64,000 nucleotides of DNA from a virus: the IMG/VR virus record IMGVR_UViG_3300044691_000371, positions 20,827-84,826 of that record, one strand, 5' to 3'. Positions 2,817 through 21,243 of the stretch are shown in pieces. The number at the start of each line of letters is the position of its first letter. Within the stretch, counting starts at the first letter, position 1. The notes under the pieces were generated by a model. The model saw only the letters and a list, made by a program, of their open reading frames with translations, ran no database searches and was not told the origin of the DNA. Both the position numbers and the translations under genes were made by a program.

Positions 2817-4122
2817 ATTTCTTCAAACTTTTATAATAGTTAAATCCCCTATTTAAGTAATAAGGAAAATTAATCATAGGATGTATCATTTCGGCTGTAG
2901 CATTTTCAATATGTTTAGTCGTTAATTTTTTAGGTTCAATTACCGATACATTATGATCTATGCAATGAATTTTAACTCTATTGTAATCTTCAATTGCTGT
3001 CATTTTCATTATTCCAAAATGACCTTTAAGTAATCCATGCATACTCATACTTTCATTCAATTAAACTTTCTGGTCTATCAATATCAACGTTAAAATTTGA
3101 GTAGTCGTTTCCCTCTGCGTTTGAAATTCTCATTGGCCTTTTTGCTTTCCTCCAAAAGTCGTCACTCCATTCCTGTAAGATAACTTTTTCTTCATCTGTT
3201 ATTAGTTCATCATTGTAGACCTTTAGAAGTATGTGGTTTTGTTGTGGTGTCATTTTTAATCGTTGCTATCAAAGATATATTTTTCTGCTATCTCTAAAAC
3301 AGTTCTTACTTTTTTAAGGTCAAATTGAAATCTTGTGGTAAAACGCTATCATCTTCGCCGGTTATTGTAACATAATTTATCATTTGTGCTATTTAAAAAG
3401 TGAATTAAATTCTTGAATTGTTTTAACTGTTCCATTCATACGCTTAACAATATCACCAGTTAGGCATATTGTGAGTTTATCGGCATCCTTCTTACTTATT
3501 TCAGCGAACATTGCTTCTTTTATAAAGAGATTTACAATGCTATTATTGCCTAAAACTGTTAAATCTGCGTATGCTTTTTGTAAAATCCAACCTCTGAACT
3601 TTGTTCTTATGTCAGATAGGTAAACTGAAAATTCATGATTTTTACCTATTTTAAATTTGAATGTAGGATTTGGTAAATCTTTTTTAGGGTCAAAATCCAT
3701 TACTGTTACTTTCATCTTTTTATTCTTTTTGTATATAAATATCCATTAAACTCTTTCCAATTCTTAAACAAGCTACTTTTGAAAAAGTAGATGTATTTTT
3801 CACTGAAAATTATACGGTATTTATTCATCTCTTAAACAGCTTGCATAACCTCTATTCGAACACATTGCCTCAATAATATCATCCCTCAACCGTGCTTGAT
3901 ATTTTTCGGCTGTTTCGCCCTCACGTTGCTTTAAATCTTCGTTTCTTTCACTTGAAACAACGTGACTATTGAACAATTGCAAGACGTAATTTGCACCAAT
4001 CATGAAGCAATCGTGATCGCTCAATACTTTTCTTTCGTCGTATTGGTGCTTTTCATAAAAATCTCCTATCTGATTTTCAGCATTTAGATAGGCGTTCTTT
4101 AGGAATTTTTGATTAGTTGTCA

Positions 4123-4495: not shown

Positions 4496-4861
4496 TCACA
4501 GAACAATAACCCCTACTCTGTACTTTGAAATATTTTCGGTTGCAAAGGCATTAGTTACCTCTCCGTTTAATGTGCTGACTACATAGCCGTCTCTAATATA
4601 GTTCCTGTAAACGTCTGTTTGCTTTTTGGGGTCTTTCCAGTACGACCAACACTCTTGAGGATGCATAATAGTATCCGGTATTTTTTCGAAGTCTTTGAGG
4701 TTGTTTCGTACAGCGTGGAAACTTTTTGAGGTAAATTTTACGTTTGTTAGAAGTTTAGCACATTGAAATATTATCGTGCCTTTTATGTCGCTGTGGTATT
4801 GGTGTTGCCAAATATGGTACTCTTCGATGAAGTGGTGAAGTTTGTTTTTATTTACGCTCAT
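4496..4861 (-). CDS. PBECR2-like (phage barnase/EndoU/colicin/RelE-like) nuclease-fold protein
   Basis: IPDTIMHPQECW...YRNYI motif and position behind MuF, where this domain commonly occurs. Confidence 0.55.
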   Translation of the reverse strand: MSVNKNKLHHFIEEYHIWQHQYHSDIKGTIIFQCAKLLTNVKFTSKSFHAVRNNLKDFEKIPDTIMHPQECWSYWKDPKKQTDVYRNYIRDGYVVSTLNGEVTNAFATENISKYRVGVIVL

Positions 4862-5418
4862 GGTTTAATTATGTTTAATTTAGCAAACTCTTTATATAGT
4901 TTTAAAGCTTCTTTATTATATGCCAATGCAGCCTCTTTTTCGGTTTTGAAATATCCTATATGTTTGCCTAAAATTGATGATTCCCATGTAGGATATTCCT
5001 TAGTTATAACAGTTCCATCTTTTAATATCCATTTTGTTTTTTTCTTATTTAAGTGAACTCCTTTATATTCAGATGTTGTGTTTTTATTTGCATTTCTATT
5101 CCGATTATTTTCGCTCTTTGTTGCTGCTCTTAAATTTTCAATTCGGTCATTTAATGGATTTCTATCAATATGATCTACAAACTCTGGCATGTATCCGTGA
5201 TGATAAAGGAAAATCAATCGAGAAGTTAAATATCTTTTCCCATATATACTAACTCTGTATCTTTTAGCATTGTAATAAACACATATACATCCAAGTCTTT
5301 TGCCTATTTTAACATATGGATTTATTTTTTTCTTCCAATATAAATATCCGTCTTTATATTCAGTATATTTAAGTAATACTTGTTGTGTTAATTGAGGTTT
5401 TTCTTTTAAATTTGTCAT
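4858..5418 (-). CDS. HNH homing endonuclease with C-terminal AP2 domain
   Basis: VDHIDRNPLNDRIENLRAAT (HNH_3) and YKGV...IGYFKTEKEAALAYN (AP2). Confidence 0.9.
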   Translation of the reverse strand: MTNLKEKPQLTQQVLLKYTEYKDGYLYWKKKINPYVKIGKRLGCICVYYNAKRYRVSIYGKRYLTSRLIFLYHHGYMPEFVDHIDRNPLNDRIENLRAATKSENNRNRNANKNTTSEYKGVHLNKKKTKWILKDGTVITKEYPTWESSILGKHIGYFKTEKEAALAYNKEALKLYKEFAKLNIIKP

Positions 5419-5483
5419 ACTTTTTAAATGTTTTGCGACATAAAAGTATGAAAATCCGGCGATTATATCAAAGGATTTTTGTT

Positions 5484-6332
5484 TTAATCTATATTAAAAA
5501 TATCTCCATTCGCTTCATTTGCACTCGATAAAGCCTGAAAATAGCTATGCCCTTGACGTGGTAAAATTCCCTGATTTGCACTATTAAACCTGAATTGAGG
5601 GTCTACATGCTCTAATGATACTTTTGCTTCTTCGTTTGTTAAAACAGATTTCCCATTGTCTTCAAGGTACTGATCGTCCACTTGTTCGCTTCCGCAATCG
5701 CAATTAAATCCATTTTTTGGGTGACAATCGTCCCCTTCTGGATCTCCTATTCGATAGATATTACCAACCAATTCAAGGTGTTCGATTCTCGGATTTGCTG
5801 AATTTGTTTCTAAATATATCCAATAAGGGTATAACTCTTTATTTTCACGATATGATATAAATTGTTGACCTGTTATTGCTAATCCTATAGCCGTATCGTA
5901 TTCTATACGAAGCCATGTTTCTTGAAATATATTTACTACTTCTTTACAATCTCTTTTATATTGGCTAAACCCCTTACGAACGCCGTCTTCATTGAACAAC
6001 AATTCTTTCATCATTTTATTTTCAGCAACGCTCTTACTCGCTGAAAATTGGGTTGAGTTCAATAAATAACGCTCATATAATGAGGTATCACGAAATAAGT
6101 CGAAATCTGATTTGATTTTAGTTTCGTCTTTCAGAATATCGAAAAAGGTATTTGCATATTCTTTGAAAGTAGGCAGGTATATCCCTGTGCCTCCATCAAA
6201 TACGAATTTGGCTTCGTCATCTGATTTTTCTGAAAGCCTGTCAATTGTATGATCTATTTTGGCCTTTTGTTTCTTGGTCGGTTTCCTCGGTTTAGAATCA
6301 AGGTTGACGTATTCACTACCTAAAAAAATCAG
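5484..6332 (-). CDS. Phage Mu F-like minor head (head morphogenesis) protein; frame open ~90 codons upstream of the TTG at 6062 with no ATG/GTG/TTG
   Basis: WLRIEYDTA, PR.EHLEL.G and HPKNGFNCDC MuF motifs; manual translation shows the frame continues to the A-run at the end of the portal gene. Confidence 0.8.
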   Translation of the reverse strand: MIFLGSEYVNLDSKPRKPTKKQKAKIDHTIDRLSEKSDDEAKFVFDGGTGIYLPTFKEYANTFFDILKDETKIKSDFDLFRDTSLYERYLLNSTQFSASKSVAENKMMKELLFNEDGVRKGFSQYKRDCKEVVNIFQETWLRIEYDTAIGLAITGQQFISYRENKELYPYWIYLETNSANPRIEHLELVGNIYRIGDPEGDDCHPKNGFNCDCGSEQVDDQYLEDNGKSVLTNEEAKVSLEHVDPQFRFNSANQGILPRQGHSYFQALSSANEANGDIFNID

Positions 6333-8934: not shown

Positions 8935-9555
8935 TTATTTTATTTCTTTTGCTTCTTCAACCGCTAATTTAACAATTTCACGGCTTTCAAATTCATTAAT
9001 ACCCATTAACATTTCATATATAGCAATTTTTATTTTGACATTATATCCTTTCGCTATCTCTAAAAATAATAATAAATGAACAAATGTGCTTTTTTGTCCT
9101 AAAGTATTTGAAATAACTTCACCGTATTTTTTCTTTAACTCATCAATAAAACATAAATTTTCACTTGTGTTTAAAGCTATAGGTATCGATGTTTTAAAAT
9201 TTGAATTGACTTCATTCAAAAGTTTATTTATTGCATTTAACTCTATAAAATAATTTGATTTTATAACTTCAAATGTTTTTCCTAATATTTTAAATTTATA
9301 TGTCAAATTGTTTATTCCTATTGAATAATCAGCTATTAATTTCAAATCATTTTCAGTTAATATAAACCATTCGCCTGCAATATGAGATTTAAAAAAGCAA
9401 TTATGAAGTATAGCTTCGCAATCCTTATCAATAATTAATAAAATTTTACAATCACCTTTAATTTGATCTATTTGTAAAAGTCTTTTATATGGATTTTTTG
9501 AACGCCCAATTTTAATTAATCCAGTTCTGTTGTTTTTAATTATGTATGTTTTCAT
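8935..9555 (-). CDS. T5orf172/MUG113 GIY-YIG-like domain protein with KilA-N-like C-terminus
   Basis: YIIKN...IKIGRSKNPYKRL...EAILH...GEWF; C-terminal TFVHLLLFLEIA. Confidence 0.75.
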   Translation of the reverse strand: MKTYIIKNNRTGLIKIGRSKNPYKRLLQIDQIKGDCKILLIIDKDCEAILHNCFFKSHIAGEWFILTENDLKLIADYSIGINNLTYKFKILGKTFEVIKSNYFIELNAINKLLNEVNSNFKTSIPIALNTSENLCFIDELKKKYGEVISNTLGQKSTFVHLLLFLEIAKGYNVKIKIAIYEMLMGINEFESREIVKLAVEEAKEIK

Positions 9556-9572: not shown

Positions 9573-12014
9573 CTATCCAAGTTTTGGTTTTACTCTTTGG
9601 GTTTTAGTTGTGCCTCCTGCTTGCGGTAATCCACGTCTGCGTTGTAGAAATTGCGTATATTCATCTTTCAATGCTGTTGTGATAAAGTAGCGGCTACAGT
9701 TATGTACTAAAATTCCATTTGCAAAAAATTCGTGTTCATCTTCAATTTCCAAATCGTAAACGTTTTTTACATTCTTTTGAGCATGTTTTTGTTGGGGCGT
9801 ATTTATACACTGTAAATTCATTGTTGCAAATTGCGCATATTCTTTGTGTGTTTTCAAGTCCCAATTTCCGCCTGTATGCTGATTTGCAATTGTTAGAGCA
9901 AAAACGTTGTTCGATTGTTTTTTTTGTAAATTCCTTATTGCATACTTCGCAATTATATTGTCCATATGTAAGATGTCCAAACCCGATATTTTTTGCATGT
10001 TGTTTACACCTTTCCCTCTCTGCTTCACTTCGTTCTCGTTTAGCTGCTGCTGGAATTGCTTTTTCGAGAAGATTTTTAAGCATTTTTGCTTTTTGTTCAT
10101 CAGTCCATTCTTTACTATGGTCTGACATGTGCTGGCTTTTGGTTTTAAGCTCAAAATTGCTTGTTTCGTTATTTTCAGGATTGTGATCAATGTGGTGAAC
10201 AACGTACCCTTTAGGTATTTCCCCGACTTCGCATTCGTATTTATAAACATGTAATCTTGTTTTTCTCCAATTTCCTTTACTGATTTTAACCCATCCTGAA
10301 TAATATGGTTGGTCTCTTTTAGTTCCTGTGTACTTAATAAATCTAAATCCGTTATAGGTGATAATTTCTTTTCGCATACTAAATTATTTTCATCTAAAAT
10401 ACAAAAAGTACCGCAAACAATCAAATATATTTCTATAAAATCTTTTTCCTTAGTGTAAAATTTATGTTCTGGTGTGCATGTTACTTTAACATCACCTATT
10501 TGATATTCTTTAACCTGTCTATATCCATTATTCCAAACATTTAAAACTTTTTTATATCCATTTCTTGTCAAAACATTTTCACCTATTTTAATTTCATCAA
10601 TTCTTTTATTTCCATTATCGGTCATTATAAAAGTTTCCCCGACAAAACAAGATAACATATGTCCGTACTTCTCATAAGTTATACCTGTTTGTTTATCGGT
10701 TACTTTTTTAATAATGATTCCACCGTCTACATCTTCCGGCACCATTAAATAATCTTCAATCGATTTGTAACAAGTTTTATTTATAAAAATCTTCCATCCT
10801 AAATATTGCGTTTCTAAAATTTCGTTTATAAATGCCCCGCTTTGCGTTATACTTGGTGCTGACTTTCCAACTCTATCAACAACTTTAAATCCTGCATTTT
10901 CTAAAACTCCTATGAATTTATCAAAAAATGATCTTCCATTATCATCTGTTGTTGATCTTGCGTTTGCAGATGGATCGCCAAATACATTTATAATATCGTT
11001 ATAATCTTCACGATCTAAATATTTAACTAATTCCATTGCTGCTTTTGCTGCTGTATTGTTTGGTGCAATACATGGTAATTCACCAATTTGTAATAATGCT
11101 TTCCCAACTTTATCAATCATCCAAAGTTGAACTGATACGTATGGGCTAACGTTATTGTCACAACTTACACAATAAGTAAATCCACGCTGTTTTAGCCCCG
11201 GTATTAAGTTAAAATCTATTGTGTGAAGGTTTGTATCAAAACATTTATAAAACGGATTTCCAGGCTTTCTAAACCCCCAATTCCCAAGCGTAAACACATT
11301 GTAGTAATATGCGTTATTTTTTGATGTTCGATAACTCTCATATAATGCAATACGTTCGTCACTACAGTAAGGATTATCTTTATACGTGCCATGGGTTGAT
11401 CTTACCTTAAATTCTATTTTCCCTTTTGGTGTATCAATTTCGCGTACCCATTTAAAGTTTTTTTCTTCTGTATGTGAAAACCAATCCTGCCATAGCCAAA
11501 AATCAGTATAAGTAACGTCACATTCAGGATTAAAACTAAAATATGTTTTTACTTTTCCTTCGTTTGAACGCAAAGAGGTTAATATTACTATAAAATCATC
11601 CGCTGTTATCTGATTTGCTTCTTCTAACCATGCCCATGATGGATTCGCAAATGATTTTATTTTCTGAACGTCATCTAATCCCCTGCCATAAAACGCCCCG
11701 CCATTGATACATTTAATTTCTAATGGTGAAGTTGTGAATTTAAAAAATTGTTGCAATCCCCAATTTTCAACTACAATTTTAATCATCCCAACCATTGATT
11801 CAGAAACTGTATTATAGGTTTTCCTTATTAATAGCCCGCGAAATTTAGGATTAGACATACATTCGATTATGCCCATTTGTGCTATCTGTCTCGTTTTGCC
11901 ATTATCCCTGCCTCCCCAGAGGAAGTCAATATCAAAAACTTCTGGGTCATCGATTAAATGGTGGTAACATGGAAGGAACTTATCGCGACTGACTGTTATG
12001 TTTATTTCTGACAT
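9573..12014 (-). CDS. terL: Terminase large subunit (PBSX-type) interrupted by an intein; ~496 aa after splicing
   Basis: Walker A GGRDNGKT, LLIRKT, RGLDD..KIKS, Walker B WAWLEEA, SFNP, and nuclease motifs (FGDPSA; GHMLS|CSRY). Confidence 0.93.
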   Translation of the reverse strand: MSEINITVSRDKFLPCYHHLIDDPEVFDIDFLWGGRDNGKTRQIAQMGIIECMSNPKFRGLLIRKTYNTVSESMVGMIKIVVENWGLQQFFKFTTSPLEIKCINGGAFYGRGLDDVQKIKSFANPSWAWLEEANQITADDFIVILTSLRSNEGKVKTYFSFNPECDVTYTDFWLWQDWFSHTEEKNFKWVREIDTPKGKIEFKVRSTHGTYKDNPYCSDERIALYESYRTSKNNAYYYNVFTLGNWGFRKPGNPFYKCFDTNLHTIDFNLIPGLKQRGFTYCVSCDNNVSPYVSVQLWMIDKVGKALLQIGELPCIAPNNTAAKAAMELVKYLDREDYNDIINVFGDPSANARSTTDDNGRSFFDKFIGVLENAGFKVVDRVGKSAPSITQSGAFINEILETQYLGWKIFINKTCYKSIEDYLMVPEDVDGGIIIKKVTDKQTGITYEKYGHMLSCFVGETFIMTDNGNKRIDEIKIGENVLTRNGYKKVLNVWNNGYRQVKEYQIGDVKVTCTPEHKFYTKEKDFIEIYLIVCGTFCILDENNLVCEKKLSPITDLDLLSTQELKETNHIIQDGLKSVKEIGEKQDYMFINTNAKSGKYLKGTLFTTLITILKITKQAILSLKPKASTCQTIVKNGLMNKKQKCLKIFSKKQFQQQLNENEVKQRGKGVNNMQKISGLDILHMDNIIAKYAIRNLQKKQSNNVFALTIANQHTGGNWDLKTHKEYAQFATMNLQCINTPQQKHAQKNVKNVYDLEIEDEHEFFANGILVHNCSRYFITTALKDEYTQFLQRRRGLPQAGGTTKTQRVKPKLG
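9699..10649 (-). mobile_element. Intein (317 aa, TerL residues 456-772)
   Basis: Block A CFVGETFIMT, block B TCTPEHKFYT, block F VYDLEIEDEHEFFANG, block G ILVHN followed by Cys+1. Confidence 0.93.
9742..10377 (-). CDS. HNH homing endonuclease with C-terminal zinc ribbons, encoded in the -1 frame entirely inside the intein coding sequence
   Basis: RLHVYKYE..VGEIPKGYVVHHIDHNPENNETSNFEL...H (HNH_3); CxxC...FCSNNC and CxxC...TCSKEC; own ATG with A-rich upstream sequence and A at -3. Confidence 0.88.
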   Translation of the reverse strand: MRKEIITYNGFRFIKYTGTKRDQPYYSGWVKISKGNWRKTRLHVYKYECEVGEIPKGYVVHHIDHNPENNETSNFELKTKSQHMSDHSKEWTDEQKAKMLKNLLEKAIPAAAKRERSEAERERCKQHAKNIGFGHLTYGQYNCEVCNKEFTKKTIEQRFCSNNCKSAYRRKLGLENTQRICAICNNEFTVYKYAPTKTCSKECKKRLRFGN

Positions 12015-12086: not shown

Positions 12087-13538
12087 TTAGAACGTTACCG
12101 CCTTTATTTCGTTGATTAACGCTTGTTTGTCGGTCTCTAACATCGCCATGGTTTGGAATATTTTGTCGCTGAAACCGGCTAAACAAAATACTTTACTTTC
12201 AGGAAATTGCATTGTGCCTAATCCAGCAAGATCAAACGAATATATGAATGGATTTGCGCCAAATTTTTTATTGTACTCTGATAATGGCACTTTAGGTGAA
12301 TAGTAACCAATCCATCCTTGCATATCGCTAAAGATTAAAACACGTTCATATTTTTTATTAGCGTTTTTAAATATGGAATGAAAGTTCGTTCCGTGTCCAA
12401 CTTTGTTTTGACGTGTAAAATTAGCTGCGAAATCCATTGAATGTTGCGATAACTGATAATGAATGTAACGTGCAAAGTCTCCAAATTCCATTATATCAGC
12501 ATTAATTGCCTTTGCTAAAACTATCCCAAACAAAGCCCCTAATTCCGATTTTTTCATGTGCTTTGAGTTTGAAACTAAGCTATCCATCGACCCGGAATTG
12601 TCAACTGCAACTAATGTATTGCCGTCAAAGTTCAGCGTTTTAATGTTATTACAGCTTATATCGACCGCCTCACTTAATGCCTGTGTTATTTGACGTGCTT
12701 CTTTAGTGCCCAATGCTGAAAACTGTTTGTAAGCTATCAAATATTGAAACGGAAATATCAGCGACTTTTTAATGAACGATTCGCTTGTCAATGATGCCAA
12801 TGCCTCTGTTAAAACTTCCGGTGCTTGTGTCATGATGTTTGACAGGTTACGAAGCAAAGCCAAATAACCTATTTTCTTTTCACGTACAAGGTTAATCCAA
12901 ACTTCTTTTTTGGCGTTCTCAACATTATCACTTTGCCCCGCTGCTGTTAAACCTGATTCCCACGTATCAACTGATTTCAGCGTACCGTTTACTAATGCCT
13001 TAATTGCTTCGGCGTTTTTTTCAACTGGTGTAGGGTGAACGATATTAACAACGTCAACAAGTTTTATTGCGTTCTTTTCGCCGCGGTATTTTGCCAGCTG
13101 GTATCCATCAAACTTTTCAAACGCCAATGCAAAGCCGCCTTTCATAGCGTTGGTTACTTTCCCGTTGTTGGCTTTGTGGTACGACAAAATTTCTGTCATA
13201 TCATCCGGCCTGTAAATAACTGCATTGTAAAAAGCCTTTGCCCAATCATAGCCGCCGACCTGTATAGCTAATTCAGATGCAGCAACGTGGCTGATCGAAC
13301 GCATACCGTATTTTGTACGTGCGTAAACGGCGGCTTGTGCAACGAATTTAGGATTGCATTGAGTAATTAAAGTTTTCAATCTCGTTAATGTATCGTTTGA
13401 TTTTTCGTAAAATCCATCGCTTACAAATGAAGTAAGCAATATTGATACTAACTCTAATTCGGCAGATTGCTTGTGTGATTGCCCACCTGCTTTGTTTTCT
13501 ACAAGTGCTGTAGATTCTGTTTTTGTGTTAAACTTCAT
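12087..13538 (-). CDS. rsr: Ro60/Rsr ortholog (TROVE domain + vWA domain)
   Basis: NKAGG, FVAQAAVYAR...MRS, YQLAKY, DVVNIVHP, TWE, YLALLRNL, PFQYLIAY; vWA motif VDNSGSM, GTNF and IFSDMQ. Confidence 0.93.
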   Translation of the reverse strand: MKFNTKTESTALVENKAGGQSHKQSAELELVSILLTSFVSDGFYEKSNDTLTRLKTLITQCNPKFVAQAAVYARTKYGMRSISHVAASELAIQVGGYDWAKAFYNAVIYRPDDMTEILSYHKANNGKVTNAMKGGFALAFEKFDGYQLAKYRGEKNAIKLVDVVNIVHPTPVEKNAEAIKALVNGTLKSVDTWESGLTAAGQSDNVENAKKEVWINLVREKKIGYLALLRNLSNIMTQAPEVLTEALASLTSESFIKKSLIFPFQYLIAYKQFSALGTKEARQITQALSEAVDISCNNIKTLNFDGNTLVAVDNSGSMDSLVSNSKHMKKSELGALFGIVLAKAINADIMEFGDFARYIHYQLSQHSMDFAANFTRQNKVGHGTNFHSIFKNANKKYERVLIFSDMQGWIGYYSPKVPLSEYNKKFGANPFIYSFDLAGLGTMQFPESKVFCLAGFSDKIFQTMAMLETDKQALINEIKAVTF

Positions 13539-20307: not shown

Positions 20308-21243
20308 TTAGTTTCCATTGTATTTGTTATAAAGATTCAAAATTTCTTCGCCCATTTTTTCAAATGAAAATTTTTCTTGTGCTAATTTATGTCCTAAAAA
20401 TGCAATTTGTTTTCGTTCATTTTCATGTTGTAGGTAATAGTTAATTTTGTTTTTTAAATCATTTAAATCATCAAAAACATCTAAATGAGTCCCTATTTCA
20501 AAATCTTTTTCAATTCCTTTATATCTATGGCTTAAAACCATTATTCCTACTCCAATCATGCGAAATAATCTATCGCTACTGTATCTATCACTATCAAAAT
20601 GACTTAAATTGATTCCTATTTTTGCACCTCTGTAAACTGCTGCTTCGCCTCTTTGATCGCTCATGAATTGTCCTCCGTCTGGTTGACCGCTTCCAAATGC
20701 TTTAAACCTTTCGCTATAGGTTCGCTTTAATTCCTTTACCATTTCACGCCTTAAACCTGACAATGGAAATTGACTAAATGTATTACCGAAAAAAACTATC
20801 TCCGCTAAACTATTTACCGGCCCAATATTGCTATAAATATCTGGACTTATGCCAATTTGAAGAAAATCTGCATCATATCCACATTTCCGCATAATGTCAA
20901 CATCTTCGGTATTGCTAAATGTAGATAAATCAAATCCCCATTTAGCGTAATTAAAATAACATTCCGGTAGGATATTTCTCTTATCTCCGCTCCACCCAAT
21001 TACATATCCACCATTATCTTTTAAAGCTTTAATAGCTTCTGGACTAATCCCTTCTGATTGGATTTGCACCCAAATCAAATCCGGATTATACGTATTAGCA
21101 ACATTAATTATTTGAAAATTCAAATCCAGTGATTGAGATGCTATTTCTCTGTATTCCCAACCTTGTGATTCAAATGCTTTCTTTAATCCTAATCCATGAT
21201 GATCTGGAATGCAACTCATTCCTATATGTAATGCTTTTTTCAT
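20308..21243 (-). CDS. GT-B glycosyltransferase (CgeB/YkvP-like, Glyco_trans_1_2)
   Basis: IVFFGN, AKIGINLSH, SDRLF and DLKNKINYYLQHENERKQIA motifs. Confidence 0.85.
   Translation of the reverse strand: MKKALHIGMSCIPDHHGLGLKKAFESQGWEYREIASQSLDLNFQIINVANTYNPDLIWVQIQSEGISPEAIKALKDNGGYVIGWSGDKRNILPECYFNYAKWGFDLSTFSNTEDVDIMRKCGYDADFLQIGISPDIYSNIGPVNSLAEIVFFGNTFSQFPLSGLRREMVKELKRTYSERFKAFGSGQPDGGQFMSDQRGEAAVYRGAKIGINLSHFDSDRYSSDRLFRMIGVGIMVLSHRYKGIEKDFEIGTHLDVFDDLNDLKNKINYYLQHENERKQIAFLGHKLAQEKFSFEKMGEEILNLYNKYNGN

Follow-up and report, generated by a model that had tools for sequence, protein, structure and literature searches.

The locus described here raises the question of where the endonuclease of an intein is encoded if the reading frame of the intein itself contains none. 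The locus is the gene of the large terminase subunit (terL) in a 64,000-nucleotide (nt) stretch of viral DNA, positions 20,827 to 84,826 of IMG/VR record IMGVR_UViG_3300044691_000371. This whole stretch, called the window below, has a GC content of 33.6% and is part of an 84.8-kb virus record of soil metagenome origin that is about 90% complete. In an earlier account drawn from the letters alone (the sequence-only reading), it was proposed that terL contains an intein whose central part lacks an endonuclease motif, and that the same bases, read in the -1 frame, encode a complete HNH nuclease as a separate gene. The answer arrived at here is that a contiguous class-1 intein is inserted in the terL motif GHMLS-CSRY (the hyphen marks the insertion point), and that, in place of an in-frame endonuclease domain, a separate homing-endonuclease gene is overprinted on it in the -1 frame. 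We put the probability of this interpretation at roughly 85 per cent. The proposal that the nuclease is a gene of its own is supported by a census of relatives, by the phase of codon differences and by the ratios of nonsynonymous to synonymous substitution rates (dN/dS), which are presented below. The coordinates of the features are collected in Table 1.

The product of terL matches the Terminase_3 profile (E 4e-39) together with Intein_splicing/Hint, and more than 120 TerL homologues were recovered. The intein starts with CFVGE, carries the block B sequence TPEH at residues 59-62 and ends with ...EHEFFANGILVHN, followed by the extein Cys+1. In an alignment of 42 inteins C1 and H62 were invariant and T59 was conserved in at least 90%; N317 is also invariant, and every full-length intein recovered from the relatives has Cys as the first and Asn as the last residue. 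TerL without the intein is 496 amino acids (aa) long, the same length as that of the intein-less homologues. The close intein-less relatives, 76-82% identical and 495-496 aa long (one has 483 aa), contain GHMLSCSRYF without interruption, and the relatives P0004-P0009 and L087 read GH(M/L)LSC(S/L)R(Y/F)F. These alleles confirm that the insertion lies, as had been claimed, in the conserved nuclease motif of terL. In the AlphaFold2 (AF2) model of the terL frame, a predicted local distance difference test score (pLDDT) of 91-98 was reached in intein residues 1-85 and 291-317, most of residues 89-290 scoring below 50. The best Foldseek match of the intein model was the gp41-1 intein (6qaz; E 1e-5, root-mean-square deviation (rmsd) 1.9 A), followed by numerous further HINT structures. 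By its Cys1, TxxH and His-Asn/Cys+1 residues, its HINT fold and its in-frame site with empty alleles, the element is a class-1 intein. Since the splicing blocks are intact and TerL is essential, the precursor is presumably spliced. The sequence-only reading was thus right about the position and the blocks of the intein, and its observation that the middle of the terL frame holds no endonuclease domain proved correct throughout.

The open reading frame (ORF) of the nuclease starts 1637 nt past the terL start, which corresponds to an offset of +2, that is, to the -1 frame. Its product matches HNH_3 (E 1e-12, 47.8 bits against a Pfam gathering cutoff of 24.8), and not Endonuclease_7, and it also matches phrog_15471, an HNH endonuclease family (E 2e-29). 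Residues H43, H61, H62, D64, N70, N74 and H83, which are invariant among 67 aligned sequences, are all kept in the window protein, and the two zinc ribbons, C143-C164 and C181-C203, are both of the form CxxC...CxxxC. Five other loci were checked for the position of the stop codon, and in these, too, it falls inside intein block F. A complete HNH_3 gene with its own ATG, two zinc ribbons, the -1 frame and a stop in block F had been described in the sequence-only reading, and each of these features was found in its place.

Table 1. Features of the terL locus, in order from the terL start (positions are those of the window)
Feature	Position	Strand	Basis or remark
terL ORF, 813-aa precursor (N-extein, intein, C-extein)	9573..12014	-	ORF list; Terminase_3; homologues
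N-extein, aa 1-455, ends ...EKYGHMLS	10650..12014	-	alignment with intein-less P0004-P0009, L087
Class-1 intein, 317 aa, TerL aa 456-772, Cys1...His-Asn then Cys+1	9699..10649	-	sequence, AF2, Foldseek
N-terminal splicing lobe of the intein, blocks A and B, single-coding	10378..10649	-	T59/H62 of TxxH
Stops in the HNH frame before the ATG: TAA 10384-10386, TGA 10390-10392	10384..10392	-	TAA by translation; TGA read by hand, without a script re-check
HNH start ATG across terL codons GTA TGC (GT-ATG-C)	10375..10377	-	translation
Overprinted HNH_3 homing-endonuclease gene, 211 aa + TGA, dual-coding	9742..10377	-	-1 frame of terL
HNH catalytic core, residues 42-87 (LH...HHIDHNPENN...N...H...H)	10117..10254	-	HNH_3 match, residues 42-84
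Zinc ribbon 1: C143, C146, C160, C164	9886..9951	-	invariant in 67 sequences
Zinc ribbon 2: C181, C184, C199, C203	9769..9837	-	at least 90% conserved
HNH stop TGA from terL codons ATT-GAA (Ile-Glu), in intein block F	9742..9744	-	translation
Intein blocks F and G (VYDLEIEDEHEFFANGILVHN)	9699..9761	-	alignment, AF2, translation
C-extein, 41 aa (CSRYFITT...), and terL stop	9573..9698	-	alignment, translation

The AF2 model of the HNH-frame product had a mean pLDDT of 94. Residues 7-90 could be superposed by VIA on the homing endonuclease I-HmuI (1u3e) with Z 8.1 and rmsd 2.9 A over 78 aligned residues (17% identity), the next VIA match being I-PpoI with Z 4.6, and I-HmuI was the sole PDB match of the HNH family profile (E 5e-4). 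Foldseek with the whole model gave a weak I-HmuI match (E 0.01), VIA with the catalytic half being clearer. Taking the Pfam match, the catalytic residues and the likeness of the fold together, the nested protein is an I-HmuI-like HNH_3 nuclease.

An out-of-frame gene in a metagenomic contig could be produced by two compensating insertion or deletion errors that shifted an in-frame HNH domain out of frame. The source is a metagenome assembly, and what it could be compared with were contigs only: an identical 40.6-kb contig from run X1 (soil metagenome) covers the stretch and is probably the source itself, and run X2 yielded fragments and diverged relatives only. One X2 contig has a joint that skips 776 nt (9768 to 10545), the shorter side of which is just 26 letters long with 80% likeness. 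The alternative was judged by the relatives. A tblastn search of cultured phages with the HNH protein found homologues under annotated terL genes, all at the +2 offset, in Acinetobacter phage Highwayman, Tetrasphaera phage TJE1 and Clostridium phage phiCDHM19. More such cases are suggested by matches under terL or Hint annotation in Vibrio phages and one Rhodobacteraceae phage, which look nested (frames not checked). A blastn search of a phage collection with terL gave no match, and scanning viral contigs with the single protein gave two loci only; an alignment-based scan of IMG/VR contigs added 80 further loci. In 51 of the 86 loci the HNH gene is nested in a long ORF of the same strand, always with the host frame equal to the HNH frame + 1, none of the 51 being in the other frame and none in frame. 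With the window, the nested copies number 52, the non-nested ones being 35. The contigs of the family span 27-66% GC, Intein_splicing (Pfam) is matched by 48 of the 52 host ORFs, including that of the window, and the exteins match Terminase_3, Terminase_6N or T7-type terminase families. As 51 loci, cultured phages among them, share the same relative frame, a sequencing or assembly error is ruled out, and the window belongs to a large family with one conserved layout. Compensating indels, to which we would give next to no credence, are also contradicted by the host frame being free of stops in the nested copies only, by the TAA right before the HNH ATG, and by the relative P0002, which is likewise 813 aa long. 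Over the match, the public records of the three cultured phages L001 (OZ038341.1), L002 (HQ225832.1) and L003 (LK985322.1) annotate the long terL coding sequence alone, the nested HNH being absent from them.

With the local base composition, the chance of a stop is p = 0.0769 per codon, or 1 in 13.0, which reproduces the rough estimate of the sequence-only reading, and a random stretch of 212 codons would be open with a probability of 4e-8. When the HNH gene was resampled synonymously with the codon usage of the window, the terL frame was open in 0 of 20,000 replicates (9.6 stops on average), and when its own codons were permuted, in 0.03% (4.6 stops on average). Because synonymous resampling almost never leaves the terL frame open, the open frame is kept by selection. 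The relatives show the same: there is no stop in the terL frame in any of the 52 nested copies, whereas 1-15 stops (5.7 on average) interrupt it in the 35 non-nested homologues. The third frame contains about 20 stops in nested and non-nested groups alike.

The frame under constraint was identified by counting the differences between members of five independent close pairs (80-98% nucleotide identity) at host codon positions 1, 2 and 3. The following numbers were obtained: 225, 181 and 690 upstream of the overlap, 44, 180 and 77 inside it, and 60, 37 and 119 downstream of it. The wobble phase thus switches to position 3 of the HNH codons exactly within the overlap, and is position 3 of terL outside. 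The NG86 (Nei-Gojobori) dN/dS values of the overlap were 0.08-0.30 for the HNH frame and 0.8-2.5 for the host frame in all eight pairs examined, as compared with 0.05-0.12 for the host frame upstream. We regard the phase test as the sounder result, because standard dN/dS is biased in overlapping genes. P0002, the closest intein-bearing relative of the window TerL (86% identical; another one, P0003, is 54% identical), has 93% identity in the N-extein, 94% in the N-terminal lobe of the intein and 67% in the overlap when compared in the terL frame, and this drop fits the same pattern for the lineage of the window. These observations support selection for the protein sequence in the HNH frame and only for the avoidance of stops in the terL frame, as the sequence-only reading had predicted for homologous TerL inteins.

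Two stops close the HNH frame of the window ahead of the ATG, a TAA 9 nt and a TGA 15 nt upstream of it. An ATG is present at the homologous N-terminus in 45 of the 52 nested relatives, and a Shine-Dalgarno (SD)-like motif occurs at -18 to -5 in 20 of 50 nested copies, compared with 11.8% at random positions of the same ORFs (P < 1e-5). The copy of the Clostridium phage has AAAGGAG 8 nt before a GTG start. The upstream TAA, the conserved start and the enrichment of SD-like sites point to independent initiation of the HNH. We considered that the nuclease might instead be made by -1 ribosomal frameshifting, as a fusion of the N-terminal part of TerL, the N-terminal lobe of the intein and the HNH. 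The nested HNH is always in the -1 frame relative to its host, and there is one slippery heptamer, T_TTA_AAT, in the N-terminal lobe, about 170 nt upstream of the HNH ATG. Translation shifted at this heptamer would run into the stops (TAA and TGA) that precede the ATG in the HNH frame and so end before the HNH, and the relatives have retained an ATG and SD-like sites of their own; such a fusion was therefore rejected, and we find it extremely improbable. Inspection by eye for a Bacteroidota-type promoter upstream of the HNH ATG showed no suitable spacing, and none is claimed.

Several points weigh against an active, separately translated nuclease gene overprinted in the intein. Upstream of the window HNH there is no SD motif and the leader is A/T-rich, as the leaders of the low-GC clade are A-rich; such a leader might fit a Bacteroidota-like host, and one TerL relative sits in a Sphingobacteriaceae genome. 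No RNA sequencing runs containing the stretch were found. The base calls were checked against assembled contigs, not raw reads. To the bias of standard dN/dS mentioned above it must be added that the two-frame values come from relatives, the lineage of the window having been compared as protein only. Finally, a search aimed at longer proteins turned up P0121, a TerL of 675 aa with a member of this HNH family in frame with its intein (phrog_15471 E 3e-25; 29% identical to the window HNH), so that out-of-frame coding appears to be the rule in this family and not an obligation. The first of these points could also mean that the intein is real and the HNH ORF of the window an unexpressed or recently inactivated relic, in which case the element would act as a long mini-intein whose precise loss is rare. 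Decay of the nuclease does happen, as mini-intein derivatives such as P0105 exist. A relic is nevertheless improbable in our judgement: the ORF has its full length and its start codon, it retains all invariant catalytic and zinc-binding residues of the 67-sequence alignment and is modelled with the high pLDDT given above, and the fall of terL-frame identity to 67% in the overlap between P0001 and P0002 is what is expected if the other frame is constrained.

On the interpretation of a separate overprinted nuclease gene, the element would work as follows. Ribosomes would translate the terL mRNA in frame 0 across the entire element, and the approximately 205 residues opposite the HNH gene would form a low-complexity, probably disordered tether between the HINT lobes (intein residues 1-88 and 291-317), which would fold, splice and release the 496-aa TerL. 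Ribosomes starting independently at the internal ATG (10377) would produce the 211-aa I-HmuI-like HNH nuclease with its two zinc ribbons. In a mixed infection the nuclease would cut or nick an intein-less terL near the empty site, and repair would copy the intein with the HNH gene into it.

Comparison of alleles is consistent with such mobility. L087, which is syntenic with the window, has a TerL that is 78% identical and intein-less; a mini-intein allele exists as well (P0105). Empty, mini-intein and full alleles would be the states expected of a homing cycle. Inteins 53-59% identical to each other reside in TerLs that are just 31-34% identical, and in the four clearest pairs the third-position divergence of the N-terminal lobe of the intein was about 2-4 times below that of the N-extein. 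The occurrence of the intein is also sporadic. Cleavage of the intein-less allele by the HNH protein, followed by homing, is thus a plausible expectation. A different role could be envisaged, namely that the HNH has been domesticated for packaging or for another phage function, in the manner of the HNH proteins assisting terminase at cos sites, and is merely housed in the terL intein. All layouts of the HNH family are inside or adjoining terL, and in Acinetobacter phage BP10 the copy immediately precedes terS, where packaging HNH genes are classically located. We consider this role very unlikely, less so only than the frameshift fusion and the indel artefact, because the element is dispensable, as close relatives (P0004-P0008, L087) carry TerL without intein or HNH; moreover, the intein and the HNH are younger than the exteins in several pairs and common to very divergent TerLs, as is characteristic of selfish mobile elements, and the nearest solved structure is that of a homing endonuclease, I-HmuI.

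Related inteins were seen at slightly different codons of the TerL motif H-x5-RY: right after the His in L005, at +3 in the window and at +4 in L001 (the comparison covered the host ORFs of L001, L002, L003, L005, L006 and the window). This suggests drift of the site, or ectopic homing, within one conserved motif.

The 35 non-nested copies show how else this HNH family can be arranged. In about 25-30 of them the HNH gene stands between an ORF ending in the N-terminal lobe of the intein and an ORF beginning with blocks F/G, and its 3' end usually overlaps the latter ORF (intein-C/TerL-C), which is in the +1 frame. Such fractured terL genes were found in loci L014, L018-L020, L024, L029-L033, L044, L046, L048, L049, L054, L057, L060-L065, L069, L070, L075 and L085. 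Five copies are free-standing and adjoin terL or terS: upstream of terS in L004, downstream of an intein-less terL in L037, L047 and L059, and in L013 immediately after a terL with an HNH-less mini-intein (1153-2928, 592 aa), the HNH of the same family occupying 2980-3627. The last arrangement could represent collaborative homing or a nuclease gene that escaped from the intein. Mapped onto the HNH tree, nested and non-nested copies fall into clusters: 9 changes of state suffice, compared with 26.5 for shuffled labels, and at least 4 of the changes are well supported.

We read the frame relation of the nested form as nearly frozen, because any single indel destroys terL. Likewise, a complete gene with its own stop can, in our reading, enter an intein only out of frame; for entry of the HNH about 6 stops have to be removed in the +1 host frame, compared with about 20 in the other frame. 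Compensating indels may have turned the overprinted form into the in-frame form of P0121, or the in-frame form into the overprinted one. The most likely origin of the family is the entry of a free-standing, terL-associated HNH gene into a mini-intein. A broader proposal, which we put forward tentatively and hold at a little under even odds, is that the -1 overprint is old and stable, probably arose once, has been frozen by the lethality of indels, and is found in phages of several bacterial phyla together with a series of other layouts.

On one side of terL is a TROVE/Ro60-like gene; on the other come a T5orf172/GIY-YIG-like gene and, further downstream, a gene for a Mu-type portal. The T5orf172/MUG113 (GIY-YIG-like) ORF of 206 aa, at 8935-9555 on the minus strand and 17 nt downstream of terL, probably encodes a free-standing homing endonuclease. 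In L087 the slot 3' of terL (5027-5599) is occupied by an unrelated HNH-type gene, and because the same slot holds different endonuclease genes in the two genomes, the 3' flank of terL looks like a hot spot for them. A second HNH_3 gene of the window (4858-5418, minus strand, 186 aa, E 4e-15) adjoins a Mu-F-like head gene; its likeness to the nested HNH is at the level of the motif only (BLASTP E 9e-5 over 31 residues). The TROVE/Ro60-like gene directly upstream of terL (12087-13538, minus strand), whose product contains a vWA domain, is kept in L087 (1349-2803). Rfam and tRNA scans of the window were negative, both for Y-RNA-like and all other Rfam families and for tRNAs.

Out-of-frame nucleases of inteins turned out to be less new than the sequence-only reading had assumed, since such cases were published in 2025-2026. 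Out-of-frame and antisense endonuclease genes in inteins were described by Gosselin, Arsenault and Gogarten (bioRxiv 2025), whose set includes actinophage inteins, many of them from terL, with an endonuclease VII-like gene (IPR004211) in 'frame 3'. The likeness to the window is close: there, too, an endonuclease ORF of the same strand lies between the splicing blocks at the same frame offset, terL is the host gene, the in-frame middle is predicted to be unstructured, and invasion of the intein by a free-standing homing endonuclease gene was proposed as the origin. The nuclease, however, is endonuclease VII-like in that set and HNH_3/I-HmuI-like with two zinc ribbons here. The window shares with the published type the complete out-of-frame ORF and the open host frame, its nuclease being of a family other than endonuclease VII-like; selection on the endonuclease frame was found in the relatives and, for the window itself, by way of the protein identity with P0002. 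In tblastn searches with two family members, no actinophage of the SEA-PHAGES type (Mycobacterium, Gordonia, Microbacterium) and none of the actinophages named in the preprint was among the matches listed, the sole actinobacterial phage among them being Tetrasphaera TJE1, itself a query.

A LAGLIDADG endonuclease in an out-of-frame (+2) ORF has been reported for the cyanobacterial DnaX intein by Phillips, DeSimone and Gogarten (bioRxiv 10.64898/2026.09.14.751524), according to whose citation the case was first noted by Gorbalenya in 1998. As in the terL family, the DNA is dual-coding, dN/dS is low in the endonuclease frame and inflated in the host frame, and mini-intein and empty alleles coexist, but the host gene is the cellular dnaX and the nuclease a LAGLIDADG enzyme, whereas here they are phage terL and an HNH. 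The 'hidden HNH' insertion ShiLan of phage DNA methylases (Arsenault et al. 2025, PMC11855218) is another out-of-frame HNH gene for which the host frame stays open and the mode of translation is an open question. It has no splicing domains and its insert stays in the host protein, whereas the complete intein of the window would remove it. Fractured genes, in which a free-standing endonuclease gene lies between the halves of a split intein (Dassa et al. 2009, PMC2677866), have the layout seen in terL for the approximately 25-30 non-nested relatives of the window HNH. The nucleases described there are GIY-YIG and Vsr-like, not HNH, and the same authors predicted but did not observe the split-intein layout with an HNH nuclease; the window terL differs from this type in being one unbroken ORF of 813 aa rather than two ORFs with intein halves. 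I-HmuI of Bacillus phage SPO1 (PDB 1U3E), the best structural match of HNH residues 7-90, is encoded within a group I intron; its C-terminal DNA-binding modules differ and include no pair of zinc ribbons. No paper describing this HNH_3 terL-intein family was found in the literature. The architecture is thus already known, and it is the nuclease family (HNH_3, I-HmuI-like, with two zinc ribbons) that is different here.

The HNH_3 family extends out-of-frame intein endonucleases beyond actinophages and cyanobacteria. The locus of the window provides a clear case of about 630 nt of true dual coding, in which one frame is selected for protein sequence and the other just for openness, and terL genes of 750-850 aa are worth checking in all frames. 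Because four layouts occur within it, the HNH family lends itself well to tests of how inteins gain endonucleases and of the origin of split inteins, and intein engineers may find the naturally tethered splicing lobes of interest. If the tentative proposal of an old and stable overprint is true, the free-standing, split-intein, nested and in-frame states would form a natural series leading from a free homing endonuclease gene to an intein domain, and a disordered out-of-frame tether would be a workable, perhaps favoured, way to pair splicing with an independently regulated nuclease.

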